Below the pieces are notes generated by a model that did no database searches, had not been told where the DNA came from, and saw nothing but the letters and a program-made list of their open reading frames with translations. The translations under genes and the position numbers were made by a program. 27,458 nt of DNA, from the NCBI GenBank assembly GCA_046758445.1, contig JBHIAE010000037.1, positions 1 through 27,458 of the forward strand, read 5' to 3'. Positions 3,401 through 25,895 of this stretch are shown in pieces. The stretch is from Candidatus Thorarchaeota archaeon. GTDB lineage: Archaea > Asgardarchaeota > Thorarchaeia > Thorarchaeales > Thorarchaeaceae. Positions within the stretch are counted from its first letter, which is position 1, and each line of letters starts with the position of its first letter.

Positions 3401-6015
3401 GTTATGACATGTCCAGCTGTGTCATTTGCGTATACCGTTAGACCATAGCTCGAGCCAAAGGGTAGGAATGTGGAATTGGTGATCATTCCGTATTGGTCGA
3501 CCATAAAGTGCGCAGTATCATTGACCCACCACTCGTCGATTCCGGGGTAATAGGCAGTAGCGTCGACATCGTAGGCGAATACATAACCGTAATCAGCTAC
3601 CTGATCAGTGGGATACACCAACCACAACGGAAGTGCGCCAGGCGGCAGCATCATAGGATGGTAGTCCACTGGACGACTTCCATATCCGGGAATCGCATAT
3701 GGAGTGTCTCCGATGCCATTATTGTCTTCATCTGTGGTTCCAGTGTATTGGGAGTAGTAGTTGTGGCTGAAGACGCTACCATAGGTGCGATAGGCAAATG
3801 CGTCCTGAGTGTTGTTGGCAAACACGTTCCACACGACTACGTGTTGACCCTCTGCACTAGAATAGTCGTAGATGTAGATTCCATATCTGTTTCCGATGCA
3901 TGTAGTGTTGGCTATCGTGACGTTAAATGATCCCGTCAAGTAGATACCCCACTCGACATGATTGTTGAAAGTGTTGTTGGCCACCATGCAGTGACTTGAT
4001 CTATACATGTATAGTCCATAGAAGGTGGAGCCTGAGCAATTGTTGTTGATTATCACATTGAAGCTGGAGTATGAGGAGGAGATATAGCCTCCCGTACAGT
4101 CGTTGTCGCTTATTCTATTGTATGAGGCACTGCTAAGACCGATTCCTAGAACAGTATTGTTGCTGATAGTGTAGAAATGCGAGTATGACAAATAGATGGA
4201 CGTTGCACTGTTGTTAGTGACTGTGCCTGAATCAGATCGATAGAATCTCAAACTGCCTCCAATGTCGTTCTGTCTGACTGTGCTAGAACCGGAATAGTGG
4301 AACTCAACGTTCGCAGTGCAGTTGTTACGAACGACACTAACATGACTCGAGTACCTAATCGAGATGCTATAGTACCCTCCGGACACTGTGTTGTTGTATA
4401 TTGTATTATTAGCTGCATAGTAGAAGCGGATTCCATCGTTCGTGCCGGAAGCTAGGAGATTGTGCGAAACAATGTTGAACTGGCTTACATCAGAGAAATA
4501 GAAGCCAATCGTAAAGCCAGTGCAGTTGTTGCTGGTGATGATACTGTGGCTCGTGTTTGAGAAGTGGATTCCGTAAAAGTTGCCGATGAGTGTGTTGTCT
4601 GAGATGACAGCGTTGGACACATTGTGGAGGTATATGGCCGCATGCGGATATGTAGTGGCCCCACCAAGCGTACAATTGCGAATCTCGAAATGAACGCGGG
4701 TATGCGTAATGTAGATGCAGTAACCTCCAGTCCCGTACAAGTTGATGATCTGGTCTTCAATGATGAAGGGATCACCTTCAGTCCCGGTACCAGGCCATCC
4801 CTGCGTTTCAAAGTCTTCGTCAGATTCGATGACTATTGGAGGGTTGGGACAGAATTTCACATCCACGGTGAAACTGGCTTCTAGTATGTTGTTGTAAGTG
4901 TCATTCACAAAGACTCGAATACCGTATAACCCTCCGTAAAGGAAGGTTGCGTTTGTGATTACACCGTCGCCATCGATGGCAAAGTTGACCGTGTCATTGA
5001 TCCACCAGGTATCCAAGCCGGAGAGGTCCTGGGCGTTTAAGTCATATGTGAAATTCCTCCAGGACAATACCCTCCTATTGCTTGGAATGCCAACCCAGCT
5101 TGGAGGAGTTGTATCATGAACAGTCACCGTGAACGTTGACATCTGAGTGAGACCTAGTGTGTCATTGACCCAGACTTTGAGACCGTACTTGCCCACAGGC
5201 AGAAGTACCACATCTGTAATAACACCGTCCACATCAATGGCAAACCTCGCGGTGTCATTGAGCCACCACCTGTCAAGACCTGACAAGTCAGTTGCATTGA
5301 GGTCATAGTAGAAAGAGTCACCAAACTCGACAGTCTGATCAGTGGGCTCTTCTACCCACTCTGGTGGTGCTAGGGCATCGACGTCAATCCTTATTGTCGC
5401 AGTACAATAGTTGTGTGAAGGGTCGTAGGCCCTTATCTCGAGCCAATATACGTCCGGCGTTAAGTATGTAGCGTTTGTGATGAGTCCATTGATGTCGACA
5501 GAGAAGTGCGTGTCATTCACCCAGTAGTGATCAATACCTGCCAAATCGGTCGCGTTCACATCATAGACAAAGGGTATACTTTCCTCAAAGTGGTGATCGC
5601 CAGGGACCTCGTCCCAAGTGGGGCTAGTCGTGTCTTGGACTGTCACTCGAAATGTCGCACTGCAGTAGTTGTCGTATATGTCATAGGCCCTCAGTTCGAG
5701 CCAATAGATACCCACAGTCAGGTCGGTCGCATTTGTGATCAGACCGTCACCATCAATGCTGAACTGAGTATCATTGACCCAATAGTAGTCGATTCCAGAA
5801 ACATCCGAGGCCCCAATATCATAGCTGAATGCATCTCCGAACTCCACGATCTGGTCAACGGGCTGGAAGTCCCAAGTGGGCGGAGTGACATCAATGGAGA
5901 AACTCCAGACAGATGAGAAATCACTCAAATCGCCCTGAGAATCGTTGGCGAGGACCCGCCAGTACCATATGCCCTCCGCCAACGGTGACGAAGGAGTGTA
6001 GGTCGTGGCACCCAC
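409..6015 (-). CDS. C-terminal part of the giant surface protein: 11 Ig/cadherin-like repeats, two right-handed beta-helix (NosD/CASH-like) domains, C-terminal domain and TM anchor
   Basis: Repeated ~86-aa 'DTTPPxW..P.DQ..EFG..F.YDL.A.D.SGID.WW.NDT..F.ID..G.ITN...L..G.Y' units, 'NN.C..N.YGI.L..S' beta-helix repeats, and a hydrophobic C-terminus with a basic tail (KQRISRIKG). Confidence 0.85.
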   Translation of the reverse strand: MGATTYTPSSPLAEGIWYWRVLANDSQGDLSDFSSVWSFSIDVTPPTWDFQPVDQIVEFGDAFSYDIGASDVSGIDYYWVNDTQFSIDGDGLITNATDLTVGIYWLELRAYDIYDNYCSATFRVTVQDTTSPTWDEVPGDHHFEESIPFVYDVNATDLAGIDHYWVNDTHFSVDINGLITNATYLTPDVYWLEIRAYDPSHNYCTATIRIDVDALAPPEWVEEPTDQTVEFGDSFYYDLNATDLSGLDRWWLNDTARFAIDVDGVITDVVLLPVGKYGLKVWVNDTLGLTQMSTFTVTVHDTTPPSWVGIPSNRRVLSWRNFTYDLNAQDLSGLDTWWINDTVNFAIDGDGVITNATFLYGGLYGIRVFVNDTYNNILEASFTVDVKFCPNPPIVIESDEDFETQGWPGTGTEGDPFIIEDQIINLYGTGGYCIYITHTRVHFEIRNCTLGGATTYPHAAIYLHNVSNAVISDNTLIGNFYGIHFSNTSHSIITSNNCTGFTIGFYFSDVSQFNIVSHNLLASGTNDGIRFYYAANNTIYNNTVSGGYYSISIRYSSHVSVVRNNCTANVEFHYSGSSTVRQNDIGGSLRFYRSDSGTVTNNSATSIYLSYSHFYTISNNTVLGIGLSSASYNRISDNDCTGGYISSSYSSFNVIINNNCSGSTFYGLYMYRSSHCMVANNTFNNHVEWGIYLTGSFNVTIANTTCIGNRYGIYIYDYSSAEGQHVVVWNVFANNTQDAFAYRTYGSVFSHNYYSQYTGTTDEDNNGIGDTPYAIPGYGSRPVDYHPMMLPPGALPLWLVYPTDQVADYGYVFAYDVDATAYYPGIDEWWVNDTAHFMVDQYGMITNSTFLPFGSSYGLTVYANDTAGHVITAEFSITVQDNLPPEWVLSPGNQRLELGEDLYYDLDAYDPSGIELWWLSNYENFTIDQDGVITNVKPLIKGLYDIQVSVNDTLGNVATAAFVVAVDMYIPHGRIYLVGDASFANQGWPGSGTPTDPYRIEYLDISAGSYYYCIYVRATSVNFIIRDCLLHDSYVGIYLDGVANGQLINNTCASNEYGIRLYGSSSILISGNNCTSSYSSGIDLYVSSDIVIEDNTCTQNRYGILLTTCSDIVARNNVLTGNTNAGIRMYRCTSIVIEDNDCSQNRDYGIISSYGSHNILRNNTCTENSRYGIYFYRSHYSSLTNNTCINNRDYGIYLYYSDRNSVTWNVFGNSTTNAYDSRGSYNTFDYNFYSDYTGIDADGDSFGDTPHTFYNNQDPHPLMMPRWLTPPADQILEFGDIFRYKTEVQYFWNLDAWWLNDTTYFSIDSNGVITSIGLVPVGSYGLNVSVNDTRGAVLSGEFTITVIDTTPPSWVEMPVTQTVEFGTSFAYDLDATELSGVDYWWLNVTEGFVIDEDGVITNSTFHAVGVYSLEVRVYDIYGNYRSAEFRVLVVDTTDPVWIQTPSDRTVEFGDTFSYELFAYDLSGIHQWWINDTIRFFIDGNGVIVNATRLEVGEYWIEVRAIDPYDNYASATFRIIVQDTTPPSWIVVPTDQTSEFGEDFLYELEASDLSELGRWSVENGLFAIDWAGRLRTVRVLTPGNYGVTIHVSDIYGNTLSARITVTVVDTTPPEWGASLLDQTLEYGESLSYQLVASDLSGLDSWWLNDTAHFQVDIYGLVTEVTPLSEGVYGLKVWVNDTLGNVQWGVFKVTVLGAWSLVEVLDLELSGSFDFLLKEKIHLQLAALLTDAATGNPVSGANVTATIYGPAPNDDNDDDDNGGGSEQFIMTVTLVEEESGSGVYIFTTEQTMHELGLEKGIYLVYCTATLDDLQAVDMIQFHIDPPSEEGTGTYVGFNVLLVLSAGIMLGGFATVVVIVVVKQRISRIKG

Positions 6016-6102: not shown

Positions 6103-8439
6103 TCATTCGAACGTGGGCGTATTGTCGTTGAGCATTGCCCCGTCAACGGGTGAGTTGAGAGAAGGCGGGTCCAGTTGAGCGTAGTAGGAGAGAGAGAGCA
6201 TGGAGAGTATTGGTGTATTGCTCCAATTCGATGTCTGAAGTTTGGCACGCCACATCAACTGATGGCCAACCTGACCGAAGCTGTGCTCAACACCCGGTGT
6301 CACCGATTCCCAGTGTGTTCCGCCATCTGCTGAGAGGTAGTAGAAGATCCCGGTATCTGAAGGTGTTGCATCTGAGCAAGTCAGTGTGGCCCGCTCGACC
6401 GTGGCGGTTGGCGAGTCAAAGACTGCTAGAGATTGCCCAAGGGCCAGAGACTCATACTGTCGCCATCTGTTATGTCTAATCTCTATGATTTGTAGACCAT
6501 CCCGTATTGCGGCGACGTAAGCATAGTCGCCAGATACGAATACATCCTCATCGTCACCGGGGAATGTACATTGCCAGGCCACCGATGGGTGCAACGGATC
6601 CTCGATGTCGATTATCTGGAGATTACCTATTTGCGTAGTAAGATACGCATAGTTGCCTGAAACGAACACATCAATGGTACCTCCTGGCAAGTCAAGATGG
6701 CTGACCAACGTAGGATGAGCCGGATCAGATATGTTAACCACTGCTAGCCCGTTCATATGGATAGCTACATAGACGAAGTTCCCTTCAACAAATACAGCCA
6801 AGGCGCCGACACTACCAATGCCTCTAGGAACATCACACATCGCTAGTAGAGTCGGCTGTGTCGGATCTGTTACATTGAAGACTTTGAAACTACCCTCTGC
6901 ATCAGCAACGTAGGCATAGTCACCCTCCACATCCACATCGAACACCCTACCTGGAGTGTTGTAACTACCAACTATCCTTGGACTTCTTGGATCTGTGACG
7001 TTGACAACCTGTAGACCCGAGTAACGGTCGGCCATGTAAGCGTAATTGCCCTCAATGTCCAGATTCATAGAGCATTCGGGTGTGTCAACCCCGCCCGCCC
7101 TTGTCAGATGAGTCGGATCAGTGGCGTTGATTATCTGAAGTCCGGAGTTGCCGTTGGCAACGTATATGTAGTCACCAACTACCTTCATACCTTGGGACTC
7201 ACGTGGTGTTCTATATGATCCGAGCATGACAGGGTTGGTAGGATTTGAGATATTCAGAACTCGCACGCCGCTGTGCCATTCATTAGTATAGGCGTAGTCA
7301 CCACTTACGAATATACCACGAGTCATCTCAAGAGTATCAATGTGGCCGACCCACCTCGGAGCGACGGGATCAGATATCCTGATGACCTGCAATCCTGATT
7401 CCCCATCCGCTATATATGCAAAGTTGCCTGCGATTACAACATCTTTCACTGTTCCGTCTGTGTCACAGGCACCCGCCCACTCTGGGTGAAATGGAGAGGT
7501 GACATTCAAAGCTATTAGACCCGCAAGTCCGTTGGCTAGGTAGACGTAGTCGCCTTCGACCGCAACTGTCCAAGCATTGTCAGCCGTGTCATATGCACCG
7601 ACGAAAGTCGGATTCTTGGGGTCCGTAATATTGAGTATTTGCAACCCATGTTCCCCATCTGCAACATAGGCGTGATCGCCAGCAATCCAAACGCCTGAAG
7701 CCTGCTGAGGAATGCCACATGTTCCCGCCAGTACCGGACTTGCCGGATTCGTTACGTCAATTACTGCCAGTCCGGAGGCATTGTCAGCGATATATGCAAA
7801 GTTCCCCTCCACGTAGAGATTCATTGCATTCCCTGGAGTCGTGCAAGCCCCGGCCCACGTCGGTGATGTGGGAATGCTGATATTCACGGCCACCAGTCCT
7901 GTAGGATAGTCAACCAAGTACACGATGTCCCCTGTCACCCATAGATTGACCGCCGAACCGGGAGTGTCAATGGACGCCTCTAAGGTTGGGAGTGTGGGAT
8001 TGCTGATGTTGACTACCTGCAGTCCCGTTGTGCCAGCGGCCACATATGCGAAATCTCCCCAGATTGACACTGCCGAAGCATCACCTGATGTTTCACAGTT
8101 CCCGGCCAGAGTTGGGTGAGCAAGGTCTGTAATGTTGACCACCTGCAGCCCTGCTGATCCATCGGCAACATAGGCGAAGTCCCCCGCTATTGCGACTCCC
8201 ATGGCATCACCACCTGTGTCGTAGCCACCCACTAGTAGAGGATTACTGCGTGGGAGTCTTAACTCCCCTGTTCCCCAGCCTGTGGCATTTGTGACTGCGG
8301 CATCCTCAAAGGTCGTAGTCGTAAAGTCTTCAGTGTAATGAAGAGTTGCCGCTTCTACTGGACTAGGTCCCAGAAGTGCAAGAATCAACAGACCAGCTAG
8401 AAACGCTAGAATCATTCTTTCATGCAGGTTCAGAACCAT
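6103..8439 (-). CDS. N-terminal part of the giant surface protein: signal peptide plus 14 LVIVD repeats (probably two 7-bladed beta-propellers)
   Basis: Signal peptide MILAFLAGLLILALLG...VEA, followed by 14 copies of 'G.YAYVADG..GLQVVNI..P..P..(VG)..DT'. Confidence 0.85.
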   Translation of the reverse strand: MVLNLHERMILAFLAGLLILALLGPSPVEAATLHYTEDFTTTTFEDAAVTNATGWGTGELRLPRSNPLLVGGYDTGGDAMGVAIAGDFAYVADGSAGLQVVNITDLAHPTLAGNCETSGDASAVSIWGDFAYVAAGTTGLQVVNISNPTLPTLEASIDTPGSAVNLWVTGDIVYLVDYPTGLVAVNISIPTSPTWAGACTTPGNAMNLYVEGNFAYIADNASGLAVIDVTNPASPVLAGTCGIPQQASGVWIAGDHAYVADGEHGLQILNITDPKNPTFVGAYDTADNAWTVAVEGDYVYLANGLAGLIALNVTSPFHPEWAGACDTDGTVKDVVIAGNFAYIADGESGLQVIRISDPVAPRWVGHIDTLEMTRGIFVSGDYAYTNEWHSGVRVLNISNPTNPVMLGSYRTPRESQGMKVVGDYIYVANGNSGLQIINATDPTHLTRAGGVDTPECSMNLDIEGNYAYMADRYSGLQVVNVTDPRSPRIVGSYNTPGRVFDVDVEGDYAYVADAEGSFKVFNVTDPTQPTLLAMCDVPRGIGSVGALAVFVEGNFVYVAIHMNGLAVVNISDPAHPTLVSHLDLPGGTIDVFVSGNYAYLTTQIGNLQIIDIEDPLHPSVAWQCTFPGDDEDVFVSGDYAYVAAIRDGLQIIEIRHNRWRQYESLALGQSLAVFDSPTATVERATLTCSDATPSDTGIFYYLSADGGTHWESVTPGVEHSFGQVGHQLMWRAKLQTSNWSNTPILSMLSLSYYAQLDPPSLNSPVDGAMLNDNTPTFE

Positions 8440-8926: not shown

Positions 8927-10957
8927 GTGAGAAACCTGGTGGTGAAGGTAGTGAGGTCCGCCTACGCAATGCCCCTGATCATGATGCTGCTCTTCATGAG
9001 TTTCGCTCCTGGTGCTTCAGAGGTCCTCCCTTTGCATCTTCAGAACGCCCACGAAACACAGGACAAAGAATTGACTCTCGGTCAGTCAGGACTCGAGGAC
9101 TACGAAGAGTTCTCCAAGGGGAACTTCACCGGAGTGGAGATGTCGAATATCAGCCTGTCTGTCATTCTGGATGACGTACGCTCAACCGTTGAAGGGAACT
9201 TGACGTTAGACTACTACAATGGTGACTCCGTCCCTTTCTCAACCATACCCTTTCATCTCTATCCTGTTGGGATGAGATACACAGACAGGCAGGGAGGAAT
9301 TCAGATTCTGAGCGTGACCACGACTGGACCATCACCAGTTGTGTTGTCGCACAACATAGAACCGCATGGCCAGATCATGTGGGTGGACCTCCCAGCACCG
9401 CTTGTACCAGGGAACAGGGTCTCTTTCCAGATACTGTTCCTAACCACACTGCCGGATGAATTGGACCGGGCAAACTCGTTCGGCTTTGACTCAATTCAGT
9501 CAAGGATCTACACATTCTCCAGCTCTTATCCTATGCCCTGCGTCTACGATGAGGCAGATGGTTGGAATACAGATCTCTATGTCGACTATGGTGATCCCTT
9601 CTACCACGACATGGCATTCTACGACTTCTTCATTGAGGCGCCGGATGACATAGTCGTTGCTGCAACGGGCGAACTGATTGACAGTCAGAGTGATGGTGTG
9701 AACACCACCTATCATTACAACGCGGGTCTGCCCGTGCGAGAAGTGACCTTCTCAGCATCAAGATACTACGAGGTAGACTCCATCATAGTGAGTGGCGTCA
9801 ATATCACAAGCTACTTCTTGCCCAACTCTCGACCAGAATGGGAGAATGACTTTGTGCAGTGGGCCAATCTGACCCTGATATTGCTCAACGACACTTACGG
9901 AATCTATCCCTATACAACCCTAAACGTAGTAGAGCAGCATGGATTCTATGGCGGAATGGAGTACCCGTGCCAAGTCTATGTGACGAATCTGGCCCTTCAG
10001 TTGCTGAGAAACGGAGAACGTCCCCCATGGTACCTCAGGCTACTGGTTGTTCACGAGGTGGCTCATGAGTGGTGGTCCCAACTCGTGGGCACAGACGCAA
10101 TTGACTGGGGGTACATTGACGAGGGACTCACGTGCTGGTCTCACTCATACTATGGAGAGGTGTATCACGGAAACTGGGAGTACTTCCAGTATTATCGTTA
10201 TACCGACACGACAAGAACGTTCTATCACACAAACGGAATCGACACTGCTCTAAACCTGTCGAACTATGACAGGACAGAACTTGTCGGTTATGTTGACTAC
10301 ACGAAGACACCATTGATCCTGGAGAAGCTTCGATTGGAAATCGGTCACGACGACTTCATTGCGGGACTAAGCCATTTCTTCAAGAAGAGCTATTTCAAGT
10401 TCGGTACTCTTCGAGGCCTTCAAGAGTCCCTAGAACTGGTTGTGGGAAGGTCTCTGGACTGGTTCTTCTTGCCATACTTCGATAATCCTCGTCTGCCAGA
10501 CTATACCTTCACAAGTGCGGTCTACGACTCCAGCGACTCCACTCTGACTGCGACGATCGAGGATGCAAACGAAGATGTGAACCCATATCAGTACTCACAA
10601 AGAGTGAGAATCGAAGTCTTGGGCTCTGTGTATCTGCCTCCTAGGAACGACCTTGACTTGGACGCCGTTCCTGTACGTATCTCTGGACTGAATCTCACTG
10701 AAGAAAGAGTCTGGATAAACGGCACAACTACTCTGACCTATGCGCTGTCAGGTGTTCCCGATGAGGTCAGATTAATCTATGAGGACTATCTCATGGTCGA
10801 ACTGGCAGACTTAGACACTGAGTATCTGGTAACGCAAGGCATCCAAGTGTTGAGAAGAATCGACATTGTCCTTCTATATGATGGAGCCCTTGCGCTTGTG
10901 ATTGTTGTCATAGCGTATGTTGCTATCCAAGACTTCCGCCGGCGCCGAAAGACCTGA
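8927..10957 (+). CDS. Secreted, C-terminally membrane-anchored M1 family (gluzincin) aminopeptidase
   Basis: GGMEYP (GxMEN-like) exopeptidase motif, HEVAHEW...IDEGL (HExxH-x18-E zinc site), downstream Tyr (VDYTK), signal peptide and C-terminal TM helix with RRRRK. Confidence 0.9.
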   Translation: MRNLVVKVVRSAYAMPLIMMLLFMSFAPGASEVLPLHLQNAHETQDKELTLGQSGLEDYEEFSKGNFTGVEMSNISLSVILDDVRSTVEGNLTLDYYNGDSVPFSTIPFHLYPVGMRYTDRQGGIQILSVTTTGPSPVVLSHNIEPHGQIMWVDLPAPLVPGNRVSFQILFLTTLPDELDRANSFGFDSIQSRIYTFSSSYPMPCVYDEADGWNTDLYVDYGDPFYHDMAFYDFFIEAPDDIVVAATGELIDSQSDGVNTTYHYNAGLPVREVTFSASRYYEVDSIIVSGVNITSYFLPNSRPEWENDFVQWANLTLILLNDTYGIYPYTTLNVVEQHGFYGGMEYPCQVYVTNLALQLLRNGERPPWYLRLLVVHEVAHEWWSQLVGTDAIDWGYIDEGLTCWSHSYYGEVYHGNWEYFQYYRYTDTTRTFYHTNGIDTALNLSNYDRTELVGYVDYTKTPLILEKLRLEIGHDDFIAGLSHFFKKSYFKFGTLRGLQESLELVVGRSLDWFFLPYFDNPRLPDYTFTSAVYDSSDSTLTATIEDANEDVNPYQYSQRVRIEVLGSVYLPPRNDLDLDAVPVRISGLNLTEERVWINGTTTLTYALSGVPDEVRLIYEDYLMVELADLDTEYLVTQGIQVLRRIDIVLLYDGALALVIVVIAYVAIQDFRRRRKT

Positions 10958-17300: not shown

Positions 17301-17408
17301 CTAGCTTACGGAAGAGTTCCGAAGAATCTTGAAGGCCGTGACCTCCGCCCAGACCAAAGGAAAGGCCACTGCTAAACGCTGGAGCAAACCCGTAAATGCC
17401 TCTAGACT
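17301..17408 (-). pseudogene. 3' fragment of a DUF998-family membrane protein gene
   Basis: Not in the ORF track. Manual translation gives SLEAFTGLLQRLAVAFPLVWAEVTAFKILRNSSVS*, matching the 'GLxQR...W' last helix of DUF998 proteins. It has no start codon and an upstream in-frame TAA at 17418-17420. Confidence 0.7.
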
Positions 17409-17463
17409 CTCGCTTCCTTATCAAGGAGAGCCTACTGTCTGCTCCCATGCTAGCTAAAGAAGG

Positions 17464-20400
17464 CTACTGTTCATAGAACGTGACACCTTTCTCCTCAAGG
17501 GCCTGCTTGACCTCCTCTCTTATCACACTGAGTAAGTCTTCATCAATGCCATATGGTGTGAGACTAGCATTCACCTCAGTATCAACATGTTCTGAGTCGA
17601 TGGCCCCAGCAAACTGGGAGTCATTGAGACATCCGTTGACATCACTCACCACGTATACATGCGGACTATCCCCGTCATCTGACTCCAAGAATACAACGAC
17701 CACCGTACGAGGTCGCTCCTTCCTGACCTCAAGTCCCTTGTACCTGAAGACGAGCGTTTCATCGTACAATGGAATGACCTCATCCAAGGACGACTTGAAC
17801 TCCTCATATCTCTCAAGGAGAGTCACTCTGTGGACTCCCAGTTCATTATCGAGATTGCTAAGATGAGAGAGAGGAGCAATCGCCTCGACCTCCTGACGGA
17901 ATACCTCTAACTCTTTGTCAGGCGGGGTACCCGGGGTCAGTATGAACGTGAATGTCCTGTTCCTCCACGGTCTGCCCGTGGTCCCGGAGATGATGGTCCA
18001 GAACAACTCGTTGCCTATAATCCTAGTCGATAGAAGCCATGTATCTCTTGACCAATCGAACTCGCTTACATCGGCTTCCCGAACTGCTTCCTCAAGCCGT
18101 GGGTAGTCGTGGAGCTTGCCGAAACTCACGTCCATGATGGCATTGACGTTGAGAATGAACGGATGCCACATTCTACTATCAGGGTCGAAGAGCTCCCTGC
18201 ACTCGGCTAGCAGTCCAAGAGCATGGACATCGAATCCAACCTCCTCCAGTCCTCTCAGGGAAGAGTCCTGTGGCAGGTCCTCTAGTTCGATCCTAAAGTT
18301 ACTATCTTCCTGACGGATGACCATGGTGATCTCATTCCCAGCGGTCGAAGCGAGCAGCTCCTTACACGTCCTTGGGTAATGAAACTCATCAGGATAGAAC
18401 CAACTTCGATGGACCAGAGGTTTCAGGAAGAAGAGGGAGTCGCCGCCATAGTCGATATCCCTCTTGTGATCCCAAGTGAGTGTGTTTCCCTGTGACCGAT
18501 GTCCCCCTCCTAGACGGACTGGCAACCTGAGGAATCGTACAAGTTCTCCAGTCCTTGAGAACTCAAGTCGTTCTTTGATAGAGTTTCCATGAAGCTCGAC
18601 CTCGTAGACCTTCTTGTCATTGTTGACACTGACCATCAGCTCCACGGGTATCGTCCTGTGCCTGACTCGTGCGAGCCTCCTGAGCGCCTCAGCGACGGAG
18701 TCTGGAACTGCGGGCACACTACCAGGGGAAGCAAGAGGGACTGTTGTTTCTAGTTTTAGCCAAGGAACTCTATTCCATCGTCCACTGGGTTTGCCATGCA
18801 CCAGAGAGAATGAAACCCATTGGAGATCGTCGTCATACTCGGTCAATACTGGTACCCAGAGGACCTTGGTTTTCAGGACCGTGGTCATGACAAGAGGAGT
18901 TGCATCGGTGGACAGTAGAGCCTCTTCTGCGAATCTCTTCATGTCCTGAGGGGCCGTCGCGCAGGCATGCCACTTTGGTGGGATCCATCTATCTCCGAGG
19001 CCCTTGACTAAACCTGTTAGAAATCCATCCTCATAGGGTATGAGGAGCAGAGCATCGAACCCGAACTCGGACTCCCTCCAGACGACAGCACCGACCTGTT
19101 CTTGTTCAATAGCCCTCTCAGGGAGATCGAGCTGCACAAGCGTCCTAGCACGTGTCCTGAGGTTGGAGAGGATTGCCTGAAAGCTATAGACCGACCTTGA
19201 TTCGCCGTCCTGGATGTTCATCCCGAGCTGGTAGAGTGTCCACTCGGCCACGGAGGACCAGAGATGTTCAGCAATGGATAGATTCCTGCCCTCAAGGGCG
19301 GCCAAGACAGCAAGGAACAGGTTGTTGCCATACAGGAGGAGGACGTCAGGGGTCATCTCCATGACATCCTCCATGGCCAGTCTGTTCTCTGAGTTCAAGA
19401 GGTCGAGAAGCCCCTGCCTGAGTGGAACGAGGTTCCTCCAGACTTCTACTCTCTTGGGGTCCTCAAGAATGGTCTTCCGAATCTTCCTGAGTGCATCAAG
19501 GAAGAACTCTGGTGTCTTCATAGAGGGGTCTTCTTGGATGATGGCGAACTGCTTTGCACAGAACCGTTCTATCCTCCTACAGCAGTCCCTCAGGCTCTTT
19601 GTGAGGTGACTCCGGTCGCTCAGATGCCGTGTCGCATAGTAGAGCCGCCTGAGTTCTAGTTCACGGGTTTCGATTGTGTCTATCTCTCCTGCCCCTGTGT
19701 CCCCCACCACTGGGGGATAGGAAGACACAGCATGTGCATCCTCATCTTCTTGAAACTGCTTTGGTGTCCGTTCATAGAACCAACGTCTGGTAATGCTGTT
19801 TTCAGAGTCGGTGAAAACATCAGTGTATCTCTTCTCTCCTCTTCTTGGAGTCGGTGGAGGTCTCTTGACATCGAGGACCATTCTATCACCCATTGTTGAC
19901 CCGCCATCTGAACTCACAGTCTGAATGACTGACTGCCAAGGAAGTCCTTCTGAGGGTGGCTCTTTCCCCACCTCCTCTTCAGAAGACGCAGGAACTCTAC
20001 ATCTTAGGACACTTGGTGCCAGAGTCAGTGCATCCTCTAGGACCTTGGAGAATGAGTCGTACGAGAGTCTACCAGTAGATGCATAGATCTCAGAGAGGGT
20101 CACTCCTCTTCCATGCATGGATGTGATGTGAGTGGTGTATGATACCATTACATCAGGAACGACGATCTTATCCCGCTTGGCAAGCCCTCTGAACTTCTCT
20201 GCAAATCCCACCAGCTGTGGCACATGGATTGCGACGCTCCAGGGGTCTGCCTTGGCAGGAGTGTCCTGCACGATGATTCGGACATCTTCCGCCTGTGGAG
20301 TCAACCATCCAAATCTCGAAGGCATTGTAGGGATGTTATAGATGATCTCGTCGAGGTGGGTCCTGCGGGGTGAGTCATGCCTGACAGGACTGACACCCCT

Positions 20401-23037
20401 CCGTTGGTAGTGGCAGTTCATTCGAGTGTGCGACACACCGCTGTCAATCCAGATGATGTTGATATTGGACTGTGGCAGAGTGTCAAGCATTCGTTGCTCA
20501 AGGGCACGGACCAGGTTCTGTTGATATCTTGGAACCATATCTCGGAGTTCTGTCCACCCATCGAGAACTACGATACGTTCACCATTCTCCTTCTCAGGAA
20601 GGACGGTCTCGATGTGTCTGACTAGCCTATCAAGTGCCTCTGCTCCCTCTATGATGATTTCATTGATATCAGTACTCAGGTCCAAGAACCTGATGGACCT
20701 GAGGGTTGAAGTGAGCTGTCGATGAACTCTCTTGGGTATCATCTGCTCATGCAGCAGGGCATCAAGTCCGAACCGTCTTCTGACCAGTTCATCCGTCTTG
20801 TAGTCCCCCATGAGGTCCAACCACACGACCTCCTCTATGGGTGTAGGGGATGTTTCGATACACTCTTGGACATGATGAAGGAGATGCCAGTCCCGCGAGA
20901 ACCTTGCTGCAGTGATTCCCGAGGAGGTCGGAGAGGGAATGGACACATAGAGTGTGAGGACCCGGGCATCCGTTTCTCGATCAATGAAGGGGTCTTCCAC
21001 AGGCAGACTGCCTGGACTGACCATCTCTTGGAGGAGTTCAGTGGGTCCTCTTGAGGGAGCAACAAGCAAGGCCACTCTGGGAGCATCATCTCCGGAACTC
21101 AGGGGTCCTGGCACAACCGAGATAGGGGTGTCCTGTTCGACAATCTGATGGAGGAGTCCTGTCATCAGGTCTTCAAGGAGATAGTGAAAGGCGGGGAAGA
21201 CCTCAATCGGACTCTGGTCTGTGTCCAAAACAATGACTCCCTTCCAGAGTGATGTGGGAGGGGTTGGATCGTGTACGGCAATCCTCTTGTACTCGTCGAG
21301 GACCTCGAGTTCGTAGTCCCTAAGCTGCTCAAGAGCGCTCTTGTCTGGACCTGATGTGACGAGGGTCTTCCATTCGTCATCGCTCATTGCACGTTTCCAT
21401 GCATAGAAGGCAGGAACGACCGAGGTCTTCCATTTTCGCTTGATCCGCATACCATAGAGGTTGAAATCAAGGGCAGTCTTGGTCTTGATCTCCAGGACCA
21501 TCACTGGTGTCCACAGGATTCGTCCTGCAATCTCCCGCCTGATGAAGATGGTGAGGTCCACTTGTCCCGAGCGTCTTGCAACAGGTAGCTCAGCGACCAC
21601 AAGAACGGATGCTAGTGAGTCGAGCATCTTGTCCCCTAAGAATGCGACTTGTTTCAGGGACGCTGGATGATGGAGGTCTGAGAGGAGTATCCTGTGCCAT
21701 TCGTTGCCCTCTCGCTGGCTGAGAAACAGGACCTGTTCAACAAGCTTCTCTACATCCCGGTCCAATATGTATCCGGCGTTAATATCAAGATAGTCAAGGA
21801 GTTTCAGCCAACACTCTCGTACAGTCTGGTCACTTGTCCTCGTTAGCTGCTTGACAATCTTCTCTCGGACCTCCTGGAAGGCCGTCTTATCACTGTGGTC
21901 TTCTAGCGGCCAAGTATCAGTATAATCAAGCATCTTTTGCAGGGACTTGCGCTCGGTCGTGTTGGTTGTCCTTTCCAACCGCCTAGCGACTTTTCCTCGT
22001 ATCTGTTCGATTGTCTTCTTGACATCTTCGTCAGCAACTAGTCCCGTGTCAATGTAGTCGAGGAACTCTAGTAGAAACCTTTGCTCATCCAAATCAGTGG
22101 TGTTCGCTAGCTGCTTGATGACCATCTTGCGGACCCTTTCAAGGGATAGATTTATGGAATTCTCTCCATGTCTTTTGGAGATGCGTTGACGGGACCTGGT
22201 TCGCTTCTTGTATAGCGCCCGGATTTCAAGGACTATCTTCCTGAGCTCGTGGTCAGCATGAGGATTGAAGTTCGGTCGTCCCTCTTGTCCATCAGTGTAT
22301 ATCCAGTCAAGGAAGGGTCTTAGTCGATGGATGAGGAGTCTGATGTAACGATGTGCCTCGGTCAAAGGTACGTGATAGATGAAACATTGCCTACAGAGCT
22401 CGACGCAATGCGCCCTGATCATGTCCACAAAGTCTAGTCCAGGCAGGGTGGGATGAGCAAGAAATATGCGTGGACTCTTTCCCTCCCTCTCATAACCATA
22501 TCGCCAATAGACTTTGACTGCGGTATCATCCACAATCTTGTCAGCCTCTATCTTGGTGAGGGTCTTCTTGCTCCCGTCAGGATATTCCCGGATCTGAAAT
22601 GCCAGTGGTCGTGGAAAGGGGTATAGGATCATTGCAAGGTCACGGAGCCGTGCACCTGCGTAATTTAGTAACGCATTGAGTGGACCGACAGTGCCCTCCA
22701 ACCAGCTATAGACTCGCTTGAACTCTCTGTTGCCGTATCGCTTGGTGCTGGTCCACACAATCTTGAGAAACTGACCCCGCATGTTTGGTTCGGCATTCTG
22801 TACGGGAGAGAAGTCTGTCTGGCTCAAGCCCTTCTGTTCTTCAAGGGAATTCCGGACCGAGACCCAAATCTTCTTGATGCTCTGACAGTACCTGCGGGTC
22901 TTCCTGCTGACTCTGTTCCGGGCAAGTCGATTTAGTGCCACGAGACCCATGTAGATTGCGGTACTGAGGATACCAGGTGAGTTATTGATCTTTCCTTTTC
23001 TACCCCTCATCAGTGTCACATAGACAAGACCTGTCAA
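17464..23037 (-). CDS. Giant uncharacterised protein (~1850 aa) with helical repeats, a PD-(D/E)XK nuclease domain and a degenerate RecA/KaiC-like P-loop domain
   Basis: Motifs E483..GQVD494..LE516IK518..Q571LRDY, 'LYVSIPSPTSSGIT' (Walker A-like, K->I) and 'RIVVLD826G' (Walker B-like). Numbering is from 23037. The true start may be ATG 23010, about 30 nt below a TTATAT box. Confidence 0.8.
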   Translation of the reverse strand: MTGLVYVTLMRGRKGKINNSPGILSTAIYMGLVALNRLARNRVSRKTRRYCQSIKKIWVSVRNSLEEQKGLSQTDFSPVQNAEPNMRGQFLKIVWTSTKRYGNREFKRVYSWLEGTVGPLNALLNYAGARLRDLAMILYPFPRPLAFQIREYPDGSKKTLTKIEADKIVDDTAVKVYWRYGYEREGKSPRIFLAHPTLPGLDFVDMIRAHCVELCRQCFIYHVPLTEAHRYIRLLIHRLRPFLDWIYTDGQEGRPNFNPHADHELRKIVLEIRALYKKRTRSRQRISKRHGENSINLSLERVRKMVIKQLANTTDLDEQRFLLEFLDYIDTGLVADEDVKKTIEQIRGKVARRLERTTNTTERKSLQKMLDYTDTWPLEDHSDKTAFQEVREKIVKQLTRTSDQTVRECWLKLLDYLDINAGYILDRDVEKLVEQVLFLSQREGNEWHRILLSDLHHPASLKQVAFLGDKMLDSLASVLVVAELPVARRSGQVDLTIFIRREIAGRILWTPVMVLEIKTKTALDFNLYGMRIKRKWKTSVVPAFYAWKRAMSDDEWKTLVTSGPDKSALEQLRDYELEVLDEYKRIAVHDPTPPTSLWKGVIVLDTDQSPIEVFPAFHYLLEDLMTGLLHQIVEQDTPISVVPGPLSSGDDAPRVALLVAPSRGPTELLQEMVSPGSLPVEDPFIDRETDARVLTLYVSIPSPTSSGITAARFSRDWHLLHHVQECIETSPTPIEEVVWLDLMGDYKTDELVRRRFGLDALLHEQMIPKRVHRQLTSTLRSIRFLDLSTDINEIIIEGAEALDRLVRHIETVLPEKENGERIVVLDGWTELRDMVPRYQQNLVRALEQRMLDTLPQSNINIIWIDSGVSHTRMNCHYQRRGVSPVRHDSPRRTHLDEIIYNIPTMPSRFGWLTPQAEDVRIIVQDTPAKADPWSVAIHVPQLVGFAEKFRGLAKRDKIVVPDVMVSYTTHITSMHGRGVTLSEIYASTGRLSYDSFSKVLEDALTLAPSVLRCRVPASSEEEVGKEPPSEGLPWQSVIQTVSSDGGSTMGDRMVLDVKRPPPTPRRGEKRYTDVFTDSENSITRRWFYERTPKQFQEDEDAHAVSSYPPVVGDTGAGEIDTIETRELELRRLYYATRHLSDRSHLTKSLRDCCRRIERFCAKQFAIIQEDPSMKTPEFFLDALRKIRKTILEDPKRVEVWRNLVPLRQGLLDLLNSENRLAMEDVMEMTPDVLLLYGNNLFLAVLAALEGRNLSIAEHLWSSVAEWTLYQLGMNIQDGESRSVYSFQAILSNLRTRARTLVQLDLPERAIEQEQVGAVVWRESEFGFDALLLIPYEDGFLTGLVKGLGDRWIPPKWHACATAPQDMKRFAEEALLSTDATPLVMTTVLKTKVLWVPVLTEYDDDLQWVSFSLVHGKPSGRWNRVPWLKLETTVPLASPGSVPAVPDSVAEALRRLARVRHRTIPVELMVSVNNDKKVYEVELHGNSIKERLEFSRTGELVRFLRLPVRLGGGHRSQGNTLTWDHKRDIDYGGDSLFFLKPLVHRSWFYPDEFHYPRTCKELLASTAGNEITMVIRQEDSNFRIELEDLPQDSSLRGLEEVGFDVHALGLLAECRELFDPDSRMWHPFILNVNAIMDVSFGKLHDYPRLEEAVREADVSEFDWSRDTWLLSTRIIGNELFWTIISGTTGRPWRNRTFTFILTPGTPPDKELEVFRQEVEAIAPLSHLSNLDNELGVHRVTLLERYEEFKSSLDEVIPLYDETLVFRYKGLEVRKERPRTVVVVFLESDDGDSPHVYVVSDVNGCLNDSQFAGAIDSEHVDTEVNASLTPYGIDEDLLSVIREEVKQALEEKGVTFYEQ
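21742..22143 (-). repeat. Three tandem ~44-aa helical repeats inside the giant protein
   Basis: LERVRKMVIKQLANTTDLDEQRFLLEFLDYIDT / IEQIRGKVARRLERTTNTTERKSLQKMLDYTDT / FQEVREKIVKQLTRTSDQTVRECWLKLLDYLDI. Confidence 0.8.
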
Positions 23038-23259
23038 TTGATATAAGTACTTTCGTGGGTAATCTAAAATACTCTAAATCAAGATTAAAGCGCGTATATC
23101 ACTTTTTTGCGGGAAAAAAGCATGGATAGCAATTAATCTTAATAAATTTATATACAACTCTACTATACAATTGTACGAGTTCAAAACCCCTTTCTTGGAC
23201 AAGAAGAGGAGTGAATTCGACTGACTGAAACAGGTCAGGAATTTATATACAAAGGCGGG
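23038..23259. promoter_or_regulatory. AT-rich divergent promoter region with archaeal TATA boxes
   Basis: AATTTATATACAA occurs twice (23145-23157 and 23240-23252, + strand). GAAAGTACTTATAT lies on the minus strand ending at 23041. A CTTTTTT-GCGGG-AAAAAAG inverted repeat is at 23102-23120. Confidence 0.65.
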
Positions 23260-24936
23260 ATGGCGATGGCTCCTTCCACAGGTGTGACAATCGCGGTTAA
23301 GGTTCCCATCAACTGGGAAGTCATGACCACGAGGACTAGGCAGCGGCTTAGACAGACCGTTGGACGAGATACTCGAGTGATACACGCTTTCCTTGGAATA
23401 ATCGAACAGCATGAAGACGAATTGTTAACAGGCAGAAACAGGATTGATGACGGCAAGCTGGATCAGTTGACCATGACAGCGCTCAAGGTCAAGTCTGGCT
23501 ACGAGAAACGACCATGTGTTCCACATGACTTCAAAGTCCGATTTCCTCGGATCTCTCAGAACGAGATGACCGAGTGTCGACAAACTGCTGTCGCGCTCTA
23601 CGAGGGCTATCTCGGACTCAGGACGAAGACAGGGAGAAAGGTTTCACGCCCAGCATCGACCAATAGCAGCCGAAGGATACCTCGGTGGGTCTTTTCCCAG
23701 AGATTCAGACTCATTGAGAATGAAACCTCCGCCTCTCGATGGTGGCTTGACATCAGGGACTCTCTTGACTCTGTTCAGGAAGAACGAACACGCCATGACC
23801 GTTTGAGCATCCCCCTCAGAATGTCGCCCTTCCATCTGAACCAACTCAGACGTGGTGAAGTGAAAGCAGTGCAGCTCTTCACTGATAGAAGAAGGAAGTG
23901 GTGGGCAACGATTGCGGTCAGGGTTGATGTTGATGAATCTCCTAAGAACAACCTTCCTGTTTGCATCATTGGAGTTGACCTTGGTATCGAGAAAGCCGCC
24001 TGCTCGACCCTCCTCACTCCTGAGAAGACAAGAGAGACTCGATACTTTGTCCAGAGAGAGAAGGTCAAGTCTATCAAGAAGTACGATAGGCTTGTGGCAG
24101 ACCTACAGAGAGAGATGTACACTAGAAAGAACAACGGAGATCCCTACGATGAAGTAGCTAGGCGGCTCCGTCGACTGCGTTCCAAGAGAGAGAATGTTGC
24201 CCGAGAGTATGACAGGGTACTTGTGCGTCATATTCTTGACTATATCTCGGAACTGTCCAGGAGGTACACACTCTATGTCGCCATTGGTCGCCTGAAGAAC
24301 ATGCGAATGCGTGCGAAGCGAGGGAACTACAAGGGTCGAAGGTTCAGAGGAATGATCCATTCTTGGGCCTTTGCTCGGATTACCAACAGTCTGAAACATG
24401 GACTTGCTCAGCTTGGATGGAAGGTCGATGGAAAGGATGCCCGGTTCAGAGCTGTTCCTGAGGCGTGGACCTCCATCATCTGCTGGAAGTGTGGCTGCAA
24501 GGGTAGGAGACCCAGACAGAATTACTTCCACTGTCCATCGTGTGGACAGAAGACCAATGCTGACCGAAATGGTAGTATCAACATCGCCGCACGCATGCTC
24601 ACGCTCACAAAGTCATTGCACTCTGTGAGAGGACTAGGTCTGTGGACTAGAGCCTTAGATAAGGCTCGACGTGCGCGACTGAAAGCCCGAAGGAAGAGAA
24701 CTTCTCAAGGGAAGTCCTTACTCTCCAAGAGAGGACCTGCATCAAGTCCCGGAGAGTCCGCGGCCGTTCACTATGTCCAGTTGGACCTCTCCAGCTTTGG
24801 TGACGAGGCTGGAGTGAGTGATGATGACCCTGCCGTGGGAAGAACTGTGAAAGTTCTCACTGTCGCTGGGAGTGATGGCCCGGCATCAGGAAAGGAGAAG
24901 GAGGCCAGGTCTGGAGGAGGGATCCCGTCCCGATGA
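23260..24936 (+). CDS. tnpB: TnpB-family RNA-guided endonuclease (IS200/IS605/IS607 OrfB; Cas12/Fanzor relative) with rearranged RuvC-II
   Basis: RuvC-I IIGVD240LG, RuvC-II position VAIG343RL, alternative Glu VPE401AWTS, zinc finger C408xxC411...C425xxC428 and RuvC-III NAD435RNGSINIA. Confidence 0.92.
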   Translation: MAMAPSTGVTIAVKVPINWEVMTTRTRQRLRQTVGRDTRVIHAFLGIIEQHEDELLTGRNRIDDGKLDQLTMTALKVKSGYEKRPCVPHDFKVRFPRISQNEMTECRQTAVALYEGYLGLRTKTGRKVSRPASTNSSRRIPRWVFSQRFRLIENETSASRWWLDIRDSLDSVQEERTRHDRLSIPLRMSPFHLNQLRRGEVKAVQLFTDRRRKWWATIAVRVDVDESPKNNLPVCIIGVDLGIEKAACSTLLTPEKTRETRYFVQREKVKSIKKYDRLVADLQREMYTRKNNGDPYDEVARRLRRLRSKRENVAREYDRVLVRHILDYISELSRRYTLYVAIGRLKNMRMRAKRGNYKGRRFRGMIHSWAFARITNSLKHGLAQLGWKVDGKDARFRAVPEAWTSIICWKCGCKGRRPRQNYFHCPSCGQKTNADRNGSINIAARMLTLTKSLHSVRGLGLWTRALDKARRARLKARRKRTSQGKSLLSKRGPASSPGESAAVHYVQLDLSSFGDEAGVSDDDPAVGRTVKVLTVAGSDGPASGKEKEARSGGGIPSR

Positions 24937-25084
24937 TGACGGACAATGCTCTTGCTAATTCTGAAATCCTTTGGATTTCGGAAGGTGGTGACACTGGCAG
25001 GAGAGGGGCGGAACACAGGAGTTTCTTGCTGTCGTGGTTCACTCACCACGAAATGTAAGATATGGGTTATCTCGAACATGTAGA
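24860..25084 (+). ncRNA. Putative omegaRNA (reRNA) scaffold / right-end region
   Basis: A series of hairpins follows the tnpB 3' end: 24925-24942, 24959-24983 (11 bp), 24990-25033, 25032-25051 (7 bp perfect) and 25053-25079. The position matches known TnpB omegaRNAs. The 5' boundary is a guess. Confidence 0.55.
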
Positions 25085-25234
25085 AGACGCGTATGGTGCG
25101 TCGACGGCACCTAATTCGCTCATGGACTGACTGATGGGATCATACCCCGGCTCAAGTAACCCTAGGCCGACTAGGACTACCGCGTAGATTACTGGGCCTA
25201 CGATTCCTGCCATGACGAGTCTGGAGCGTTCCAT
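25067..25234 (-). pseudogene. 5' fragment of a DUF998-family membrane protein gene
   Basis: MERSRLVMAGIVGPVIYAVVLVGLGLLEPGYDPISQSMSELGAVDAPYA has the DUF998 'PGY....xSELG' signature. It then runs into unrelated sequence (SSTCSR*) after about 50 aa. Confidence 0.8.
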
Positions 25235-25346
25235 TGTATCTATCACGTCTGACTCCGCTGCATATATCTCTTTGACTTCATGGTAGTGGCCGGAACAGCA
25301 AATCAATTACCACAATCCTGTGTAGTGAGAGCATTGGGGAAGACGT

Positions 25347-25895
25347 ATGAGAGAGATAACATTCGAACCCCGGTTGGCCAAGCGCTTACAGAAACAGTAT
25401 CGGATGGAGAAGCCTCCAGCCAACCTGACTGAGCTCATCGAGTTTACCAAGGCACAGGTGTTGGCGACACCCGGAGGGCGGGAGCAGATCGCTTCCATCC
25501 GCGAGGGCAAAGTGACGATCGGGGAAACAGACTTAGACCGCGGGCAGTCCATCGTTTCGTCAGACGGACGCGAATTGAAGGTCATGTGCGGTTACGACTC
25601 CCTTGCGACAGCTCTGCTGCGCGGCGAGGGCCTTGTCAGGGCCACGTGCTTCCATTGCGGCGAGAAGATGGAGATAGAGATCAAGGACGGCGAACTTGTT
25701 CGCGCCTCCCACCCTTCGATTCGCTTTTGGTTTGGGGACGGCCCCAAGGGCATCTCCGTGTGCGACCACTACAACTTCTTCCCAGATCAAGAACACCTTG
25801 ATGGCTGGCTCGAAACGAACCCTGAGGAGCTTGGTGTCGCGCTCTCCCTTGACGAGGCCATAGAATTCATGGAGCTCTCCCACGAGGGATTGTGA
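25347..25895 (+). CDS. merB: Organomercurial (alkylmercury) lyase MerB-like protein
   Basis: MCGYD (catalytic Cys/Asp), 'ATCFHCGEKMEIEI' and 'VCDHYNFFPDQEHLDGW' match the MerB core motifs. Confidence 0.75.
   Translation: MREITFEPRLAKRLQKQYRMEKPPANLTELIEFTKAQVLATPGGREQIASIREGKVTIGETDLDRGQSIVSSDGRELKVMCGYDSLATALLRGEGLVRATCFHCGEKMEIEIKDGELVRASHPSIRFWFGDGPKGISVCDHYNFFPDQEHLDGWLETNPEELGVALSLDEAIEFMELSHEGL

Follow-up and report, generated by a model that had tools for sequence, protein, structure and literature searches.

Jiang et al. (2023) described Fanzors and a subset of TnpBs ('TnpB2') that carry glycine or proline in place of the RuvC-II glutamate and a conserved glutamate about 45 residues downstream; an E467A substitution abolishes the activity of ApmFNuc, and TvTnpB, an archaeal enzyme with the relocated glutamate, cleaves DNA in a manner that depends on a target-adjacent motif (TAM), without collateral activity (PMC10530073). 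According to Altae-Tran et al. (2023), two major clades and eight large branches underwent RuvC-II rearrangement independently; RIIr-5, the largest rearranged clade, has glycine for glutamate, several branches are almost exclusively archaeal, and a glutamate on β-5 is able to replace the one on β-4 in such enzymes (PMC10691335). The main text of that study names two TnpB groups, Cas1H-Asgard-1 and -2, that combine an Asgard host, a diverged Cas1 homolog as neighbor and the motif GTTCACTCA downstream of tnpB, and describes neither the ends, an empty site and an RNA structure nor the active site of these groups (PMC10691335). Yoon et al. (2023) defined the signature of Fanzors and pro-Fanzors as Ealt, a glutamate six residues before the zinc finger, together with D-P-G in RuvC-I, found pro-Fanzors only in cyanobacterial IS607 elements and traced Fanzors to them (PMC10711439). 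Here we describe a tnpB gene, and the mobile element that carries it, on a contig of 27,458 nt from Candidatus Thorarchaeota archaeon (JBHIAE010000037.1, assembly GCA_046758445.1), the whole of which is called the window below. With a probability that we put at roughly 80%, this gene encodes an intact relocated-glutamate RNA-guided DNA endonuclease (Ealt, TnpB2 or RuvC-II-rearranged in the terms of these studies), probably active and borne on an aCas1-TnpB element.

The tnpB open reading frame (23260–24936, forward strand) is a single open frame of 558 codons, ending at 24936 rather than at 24600 and thus about 340 nt beyond the end given in a previous, sequence-only reading of this DNA. Comparison of 18 related loci indicates that the conserved start is probably the second ATG (ATGGCT, 23266), in which case the protein has 556 residues and all the residue numbers used here drop by 2. 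Residues 1–484 make up the folded core, and residues 485–558 form a disordered tail whose DNA doubles as omegaRNA. The RuvC-I aspartate, D240 (codon 23977–23979), lies in the motif GVD240LG, which is D-Phi-G rather than D-P-G, and is invariant. At the canonical position of the RuvC-II glutamate stands a glycine, G343 (24286–24288; YVAIG343RL), at the end of strand 337–344, and a glutamate, E401 (24460–24462; VPE401AWTS), follows directly after strand 396–400, six residues before C408. Motif reading places a CCCC zinc finger, C408xxC411...C425xxC428, at 24481–24543, in the region recognized by Pfam Cas12f1-like_TNB, and the RuvC-III aspartate, D435 (24562–24564; NAD435RNG), belongs to an N-A-D-x-N motif of the 'derived TnpB' type. 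All of these features are on the forward strand.

Family searches and alignments agree with this reading of the motifs. The tnpB product matches Pfam Cas12f1-like_TNB (PF07282) at 46.1 bits against a cut-off of 26.3, and its score for Pfam OrfB_IS605, 28, falls just below the threshold of 30.5. In both the pairwise and the family-profile alignment, G343 faces the glutamate of 'IQMEDL' in AsCas12f, and E401 faces the proline of 'dpqyTSqrC'. The protein also fits the second regular expression of Yoon et al., D{P}G-x(120,160)-E-x6-CxxC-x(12,18)-CxxC-x(4,8)-D, the spacings being 158, 13 and 6. The sequence-only reading had named the protein a TnpB, had located G343 at the RuvC-II position and E401 before the zinc finger, and had noted that D240 and D435 are present; the translation and the Cas12f alignments confirm the residues, and the family matches and the TnpB/Cas12f fold bear out the identification. 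Its further statement, that a relocated glutamate is a known and catalytically competent arrangement, holds in light of the published work (PMC10530073, PMC10691335, PMC10711439).

Conservation across the family singles out the same residues. An exhaustive HMMER search with the TnpB sequence returned 920 representatives of 50%-identity clusters at E ≤ 0.001, and residues were counted in the 56 representatives of at least 380 aa among the best 150. Glycine occupies the canonical RuvC-II column in 52 of 54 relatives, glutamate is kept at the E401 column in 54 of 56, and D240, D435 and the four cysteines are essentially invariant across the 56. A single relative (P0234) has the canonical RuvC-II glutamate and carries alanine at its E401 column, a reciprocal pattern that would be expected if one glutamate is needed. 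Of all the acidic positions in an alignment of 53 sequences, with identities as low as ~22%, D240, E401 and D435 alone are invariant.

The predicted structure places these residues where a RuvC site would have them. In the AlphaFold2 model of TnpB, built on the 53-sequence alignment, the mean predicted local distance difference test score (pLDDT) is 83.8; 369 residues score 90 or more, and the tail, residues 485–558, stays below 50. In this model, D240, G343 and E401 lie at or just past the C-terminal ends of strands 234–241, 337–344 and 396–400, respectively, and D435 opens helix 434–449, strand-end positions that agree with an RNase-H arrangement in which a glutamate on β-5 replaces that on β-4. 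The closest folds found with Foldseek are AsCas12f (E = 5.8e-16) and OsCas12f, followed by the TnpBs of ISFba1 (2.2e-12) and ISDra2 (2.7e-11). Judging by the model, E401 would complete the triad in three dimensions, the RuvC site consisting of D240 at the end of β-1, E401 at the end of β-5 and D435 in the helix after the zinc finger, with E401 taking the place of the usual β-4 glutamate, here Gly343. By analogy with the characterized enzymes, the protein would be expected to cut DNA, and it may serve the maintenance of its element, as TnpB does in IS200/IS605.

The gene is divergently transcribed from, and stands head to head with, a gene for a giant protein of 1857 aa (17464–23037, reverse strand), on which sequence methods are silent: neither Pfam, applied to it and to nine of its homologs, nor a PDB search by profile gives a match. 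Its relationship to Cas1 is recognized from the predicted fold only. For the AlphaFold2 model of the first 350 residues (pLDDT 87.2), the top 48 fold matches are all Cas1 or casposase (Z 8.4–13.8 over ~150–190 aligned residues), and the next match has a Z of 5.1. Going by this model, the first ~250 residues are a Cas1 catalytic alpha-helical fold ('aCas1'). The corresponding Cas1-like catalytic domain, delimited by fold comparison (residues ~10–260 of the reading frame; 22258–23010, reverse strand), contains the conserved residues E105, H195, D202 and D205, whose spacing appears to resemble that of the E-H-D/E catalytic residues of Cas1. The aCas1 type was reportedly described by Makarova et al. 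in 2020. A homolog of the giant protein lies head to head with tnpB in 15 loci and diverges much faster than TnpB does (23–58% vs ~75% identity). We presume that aCas1 acts as the transposase of the element. Past the Cas1 domain, at residues ~440–900, nine homologs share the invariant residues E483, D494, K518 and Q571..Y575, which an earlier reader had taken for a PD-(D/E)XK nuclease with a P-loop-like region after it.

Downstream of tnpB, the motif GTTCACTCA (25037–25045, forward strand) lies within the loop and the 3' arm of the last omegaRNA hairpin, 100 nt past the stop codon, and in most of 23 related loci it is found 100–109 nt past the stop. With its Asgard host, neighboring Cas1 homolog and downstream motif, the element is the 'aCas1-TnpB' Asgard element that the main text of Altae-Tran et al. 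(2023) already catalogs (PMC10691335).

The boundaries of the element are well delimited. Homology to a paralogous copy (87% identical) stops at 17412, conservation within the family stops on the right side at 25069/25070, and a congeneric genome (G007, locus L039) offers an uninterrupted site, in which the sequence matching the window up to 17412 ends at position 910 and that matching the window from 25070 begins at 906, an overlap of 5 nt. Together, these three observations define an element of 7,657 bp (17413–25069) that comprises the giant Cas1-fusion gene, the divergent promoter region, tnpB and the omegaRNA. The pentamer TCTCG, present once in the empty site (906–910), occurs at both junctions in the window (17408–17412 and 25070–25074) and is a candidate target-site duplication of 5 nt, or of 3–4 nt should the terminal G and T, which are conserved, count as part of the element. 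The left end is not alignable across divergent loci and is set instead by the close paralog and the empty site; the right end is a poorly conserved stretch in the alignments (25046–25069, forward strand) that closes with a conserved GGTYA(T). Terminal inverted repeats between the two ends were not seen by eye.

The 3' third of tnpB appears to be constrained as RNA. Across 13 loci, third-codon-position conservation is 0.61–0.77 in codons 1–450 and rises to 0.84–0.89 in codons 451–558, where it equals that of positions 1 and 2, indicating constraint at the nucleotide rather than the protein level past codon 450 and matching the disordered tail. The omegaRNA scaffold of ~420 nt (24625–25045, forward strand) overlaps codons ~455–558 and the 3' untranslated stretch. 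A consensus fold of 24597–25082 from an alignment of 21 sequences has 107 pairs, and 38 of these show double changes that are compensatory; 97.3% of cells pair, compared with 41–47% when partners are slid by 1–3 columns, double-change cells number 142 vs 16–23 in the slid controls, and none of 500 shuffles reached any of the observed pairing measures. No Rfam family matches in 23000–25400. TnpB would be expected to bind an omegaRNA of ~420 nt whose template is the last third of the tnpB gene plus the next ~130 nt (24625–25069).

By analogy with known TnpB systems, the guide would correspond to the sequence flanking the right end, from 25071 onward, with 25071–25088 (forward strand) as the candidate for the classical guide position; 25070–25088 is identical to the congeneric empty site. 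The variable stretch 25046–25069 was also tried as a guide against the intergenic region and was rejected, the own-locus match being 9.0 and the cross-locus matches 8.7–9.0 of 12; no other target for it was found in the genome at up to 3 mismatches.

A short repeat was detected in the tnpB leader. Here, TTAAT (23139–23143) precedes the first copy, A, of a sequence of 13 nt (23145–23157, AATTTATATACAA), which resembles a TATA box, and DNA homology among family copies starts with this segment (23139–23157). A 68-nt two-hairpin unit (23172–23239) then folds alike in 18 loci with differing inner-stem sequences, and directly 3' of it lies copy B of AATTTATATACAA (23240–23252), 8 nt before the first ATG; all of these are on the forward strand. 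RNAalifold found only the second hairpin of the unit, and the common two-hairpin architecture comes from single-sequence folds. Copies A and B co-vary: the match within a locus is 12.7 of 14 vs 9.3 of 14 when the two copies come from different loci, where a match of 13 or more is reached in just 4 of 306 comparisons. We found no paper that describes a paired 13-nt repeat in a tnpB leader.

These features prompt the tentative proposal, somewhat more likely to be wrong than right, that copy B is a short guide and copy A its target on the element's own TATA-like promoter. The presence of a TTAAT-like pentamer before copy A only, and of a structured unit before copy B only, is the asymmetry that would be expected of a target and a guide. 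A guide of 13–15 nt would be too short for cutting, such that an otherwise active TnpB would bind and switch off its own transcription. A fuller scheme, in which a second short guide (13–15 nt) directs TnpB to self-repression at a promoter ~95 nt upstream and the giant Cas1 protein integrates the element with a ~5-bp duplication, is likewise less likely than not. If true, it would amount to a natural self-repressing TnpB circuit and to the first Cas1-driven transposon with an RNA-guided nuclease.

The repeat might instead be a feature of the DNA itself: a sub-element comprising only tnpB might have its left end there, or the repeat might be a site of recombination or binding, or a promoter duplicate maintained by gene conversion. 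The point where tnpB-only copies begin to be homologous is exactly copy A (23137–23139), both copies of the repeat resemble archaeal TATA boxes, and at 68 nt the two-hairpin unit is much shorter than the scaffold of 420 nt, all of which would fit such an origin. However, the co-variation is locus-specific and reaches 4–6 nt past the TATA core, and a conserved TTAAT-like pentamer precedes only copy A and a conserved structured unit only copy B. We regard a DNA-level explanation as less likely than not, although it keeps appreciable weight.

Several observations count against the proposal of an active endonuclease on an element of the cataloged class. The NCBIfam model guided_TnpB (NF040570) scores the protein at 94.6, just under its cut-off of 100, and the genome holds no near-identical copies of tnpB (the best is 87% identical), which weighs on recent activity of this copy. 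The variable stretch aligns 3' of GTTCACTCA and ends at a conserved T, whereas the main text of Altae-Tran et al. puts a hypervariable stretch, bounded by a conserved T and the motif, upstream of GTTCACTCA (PMC10691335). Finally, the empty-site sequence 5' of the match to the right-end flank (..TAGACT) is unlike the TTAAT beside the internal 13-nt target, such that one or both of the guide positions proposed here may be mistaken.

An alternative reading of the protein itself is that of a nuclease-dead, purely regulatory TnpB that only binds DNA, as TldR does, and the loss of the canonical RuvC-II glutamate, together with the repressor-like activity that the co-varying, promoter-matching 13-nt repeat suggests, would be in line with it. 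Yet a short guide can yield binding without cutting in otherwise active Cas12 and Cas9 enzymes. Moreover, D240, E401 and D435 stay invariant, along with an intact zinc finger, in representatives as distant as ~22% identity; the element is also mobile and present in multiple copies, and the same active-site arrangement is catalytically active in ApmFNuc and TvTnpB (PMC10530073). Because the invariant acidic residues are precisely these three, we consider a dead, TldR-like protein improbable, as the sequence-only reading had also judged, and favor an intact enzyme.

How the relocated glutamate arose is a separate question, and here the closest relatives are informative. RuvC-I reads D240-L-G, and DLG or DFG is found throughout the family. 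A search of the PDB with the family profile returns AsCas12f (E = 1e-32), the TnpB 9nzp (1.5e-30) and ISDra2 TnpB (4e-8) and no Fanzor at E ≤ 0.1; phmmer with the single sequence finds Fanzor2 at E = 0.37 only, and in the Foldseek comparison Mimivirus Fanzor2 (ApmFz2, 9b0l) ranks 23rd (E = 1.5e-9). Among the window proteins, Pfam annotation revealed no serine recombinase. The relocated glutamate, a known recurrent solution, is best read as having arisen within the Cas12f-like 'derived' (NADxN) TnpBs rather than as a sign of Fanzor kinship. That an Asgard progenitor or close relative of the eukaryotic Fanzors is at hand, with a glutamate relocation shared by descent with Fanzor1/2, is very improbable: the same Ealt position six residues before the zinc finger, the Asgard host and the significant fold match to Fanzor2 speak for it, but RuvC-I is D-L-G and not D-P-G, the family profile leads to Cas12f and TnpB, the partner is aCas1 and not a serine recombinase, Fanzors have been traced to cyanobacterial IS607 pro-Fanzors (PMC10711439), and the main text of Altae-Tran et al. 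has RuvC-II rearranged independently in two major clades and eight large branches (PMC10691335). The label 'Fanzor-type' in the sequence-only reading is thus not supported in its evolutionary sense, and neither are the relevance to Fanzors and the novelty claimed there, given that the rearrangement is recurrent and Asgard aCas1-linked TnpBs are already in the catalog presented in that main text (PMC10691335).

The spread of the family agrees with the Asgard host that had been proposed from the sequence. TnpB has more than 570 homologs; more than 100 of them, at 72–86% identity, are named Thorarchaeota, as are nearly all of the metagenome-assembled genomes that supplied 24 genomic loci. The best named matches of a non-mobile gene in the window, encoding an M1 peptidase, are likewise in Thorarchaeota/Promethearchaeota. 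A 2.5-kb contig binned as Woesearchaeota (L020, JAAOYH010000074.1) bears this Thorarchaeota element at 76% identity, probably owing to a binning error rather than to transfer.

In its own genome (G000), TnpB has 13 matches, including full copies at 47–87% identity and two isolated 3' ends. The latter (C3:26143–26463 and C40:12446–12751) and similar sequences at L032 and L033 are ~340-nt matches to codons 446–558 only; each is either a solo omegaRNA/right-end remnant or a miniature derivative lacking tnpB.

The element interrupts a host gene encoding a DUF998 protein, of which an N-terminal fragment remains next to the right end (25075–25306, reverse strand; Pfam DUF998 positions 1–38), with an ortholog of 83% identity in the congeneric genome that holds the empty site. 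In that genome, the gene includes 343 bp (925–1267 of L039) that are missing from the window directly after 25088, 18–19 nt past the right end; another earlier note had remarked that the middle of the target gene is gone, and this comparison confirms it. The distance of the deletion from the end is about one guide length and near the expected TnpB cut site, a single case that may be coincidence. Elsewhere in the family, the right ends at five loci (L011, L012, L013, L019 and L023) abut the reverse complement of the 5' end of one tRNA gene, which suggests a tRNA hotspot for these elements. At L011, a 22-nt direct repeat of tRNA sequence is found at both ends (2167–2188 and 9833–9854), and at L013, L019 and L023 the whole tRNA lies at the other end in the opposite orientation. 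By eye, this tRNA reads as intron-bearing; ARAGORN missed it next to L011, L013 and L023.

Other genes in the window are of less immediate bearing. Just downstream of the interrupted DUF998 gene, a protein with a MerB-like (alkylmercury lyase) domain is encoded at 25347–25895 on the forward strand. Two large surface-type proteins lie on the reverse strand at 409–6015 and 6103–8439, one a NosD/beta-helix protein with Ig-like domains and the other with 14 LVIVD repeats; another earlier note had reported a single TGA between them. A 69-nt coding repeat is present at 2419–2601.

The TnpB described here is an additional member of the cataloged Asgard aCas1-TnpB family. The relocated-glutamate site is already known from the literature, with validation in Fanzors as well as in an archaeal TnpB, so that the present copy adds an example and not a principle, and it has no bearing on the origin of Fanzors. 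Its value is that of a well-delimited reference copy of the Asgard aCas1-TnpB transposon, with exact ends and an empty site in a sister genome, a ~420-nt omegaRNA supported by covariation, a predicted catalytic triad for mutation and a candidate promoter-matching mini-guide. Such a copy brings several questions within reach of the bench: whether the Cas1 homolog is the transposase, what role TnpB plays for the element, and whether a Cas12f-like Ealt enzyme has collateral activity.

Compared with known systems, the enzyme has in common with TvTnpB and other TnpB2 proteins the glycine at the canonical position, the compensating glutamate before the zinc finger and, with TvTnpB, the archaeal host, a likeness from which TAM-dependent cleavage, possibly without collateral activity, can be predicted by analogy. 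However, TvTnpB is an IS605 protein of ~400 aa with a Y1 TnpA, whereas the protein here has 558 aa, an omegaRNA of ~420 nt and an aCas1 partner, and the glycine and the glutamate are separated by 58 residues rather than ~45. With Fanzor2 and the pro-Fanzors, it shares the Ealt glutamate six residues before the zinc finger and the TnpB core fold, but it lacks DPG, is not associated with IS607, comes from a host that is neither eukaryotic, viral nor cyanobacterial, and is only remotely related in sequence. Cas12f (AsCas12f, 8j12/8dzj; OsCas12f, 9nzq) is closer, giving the best profile and fold matches and having an NADxN RuvC-III and a similar size; unlike in Cas12f, the canonical glutamate is replaced, and the gene is transposon-borne with a contiguous omegaRNA. 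The 27-kb window contains no cas genes by Pfam and no CRISPR array, there being no interspaced or tandem repeats in it except the coding repeat at 2419–2601.

At the level of the element, casposons are comparable in that a Cas1-fold integrase is part of a mobile element (casposase 6opm, Z 11.9) and in that some related copies abut tRNA genes. They differ in their family-B polymerase and terminal inverted repeats, neither of which was found here, and in a duplication of 14–15 bp, as opposed to 3–5 bp; furthermore, the Cas1 domain here has no N-terminal beta-domain and continues into ~1600 additional residues. From the aCas1-TnpB groups, as presented in the main text of Altae-Tran et al., the locus differs in nothing essential, the variable stretch lying 3' of GTTCACTCA where that text words it as 5' (PMC10691335), and it resembles them in its Asgard host, its adjacent diverged Cas1, the GTTCACTCA motif downstream and its bounds as a mobile unit.

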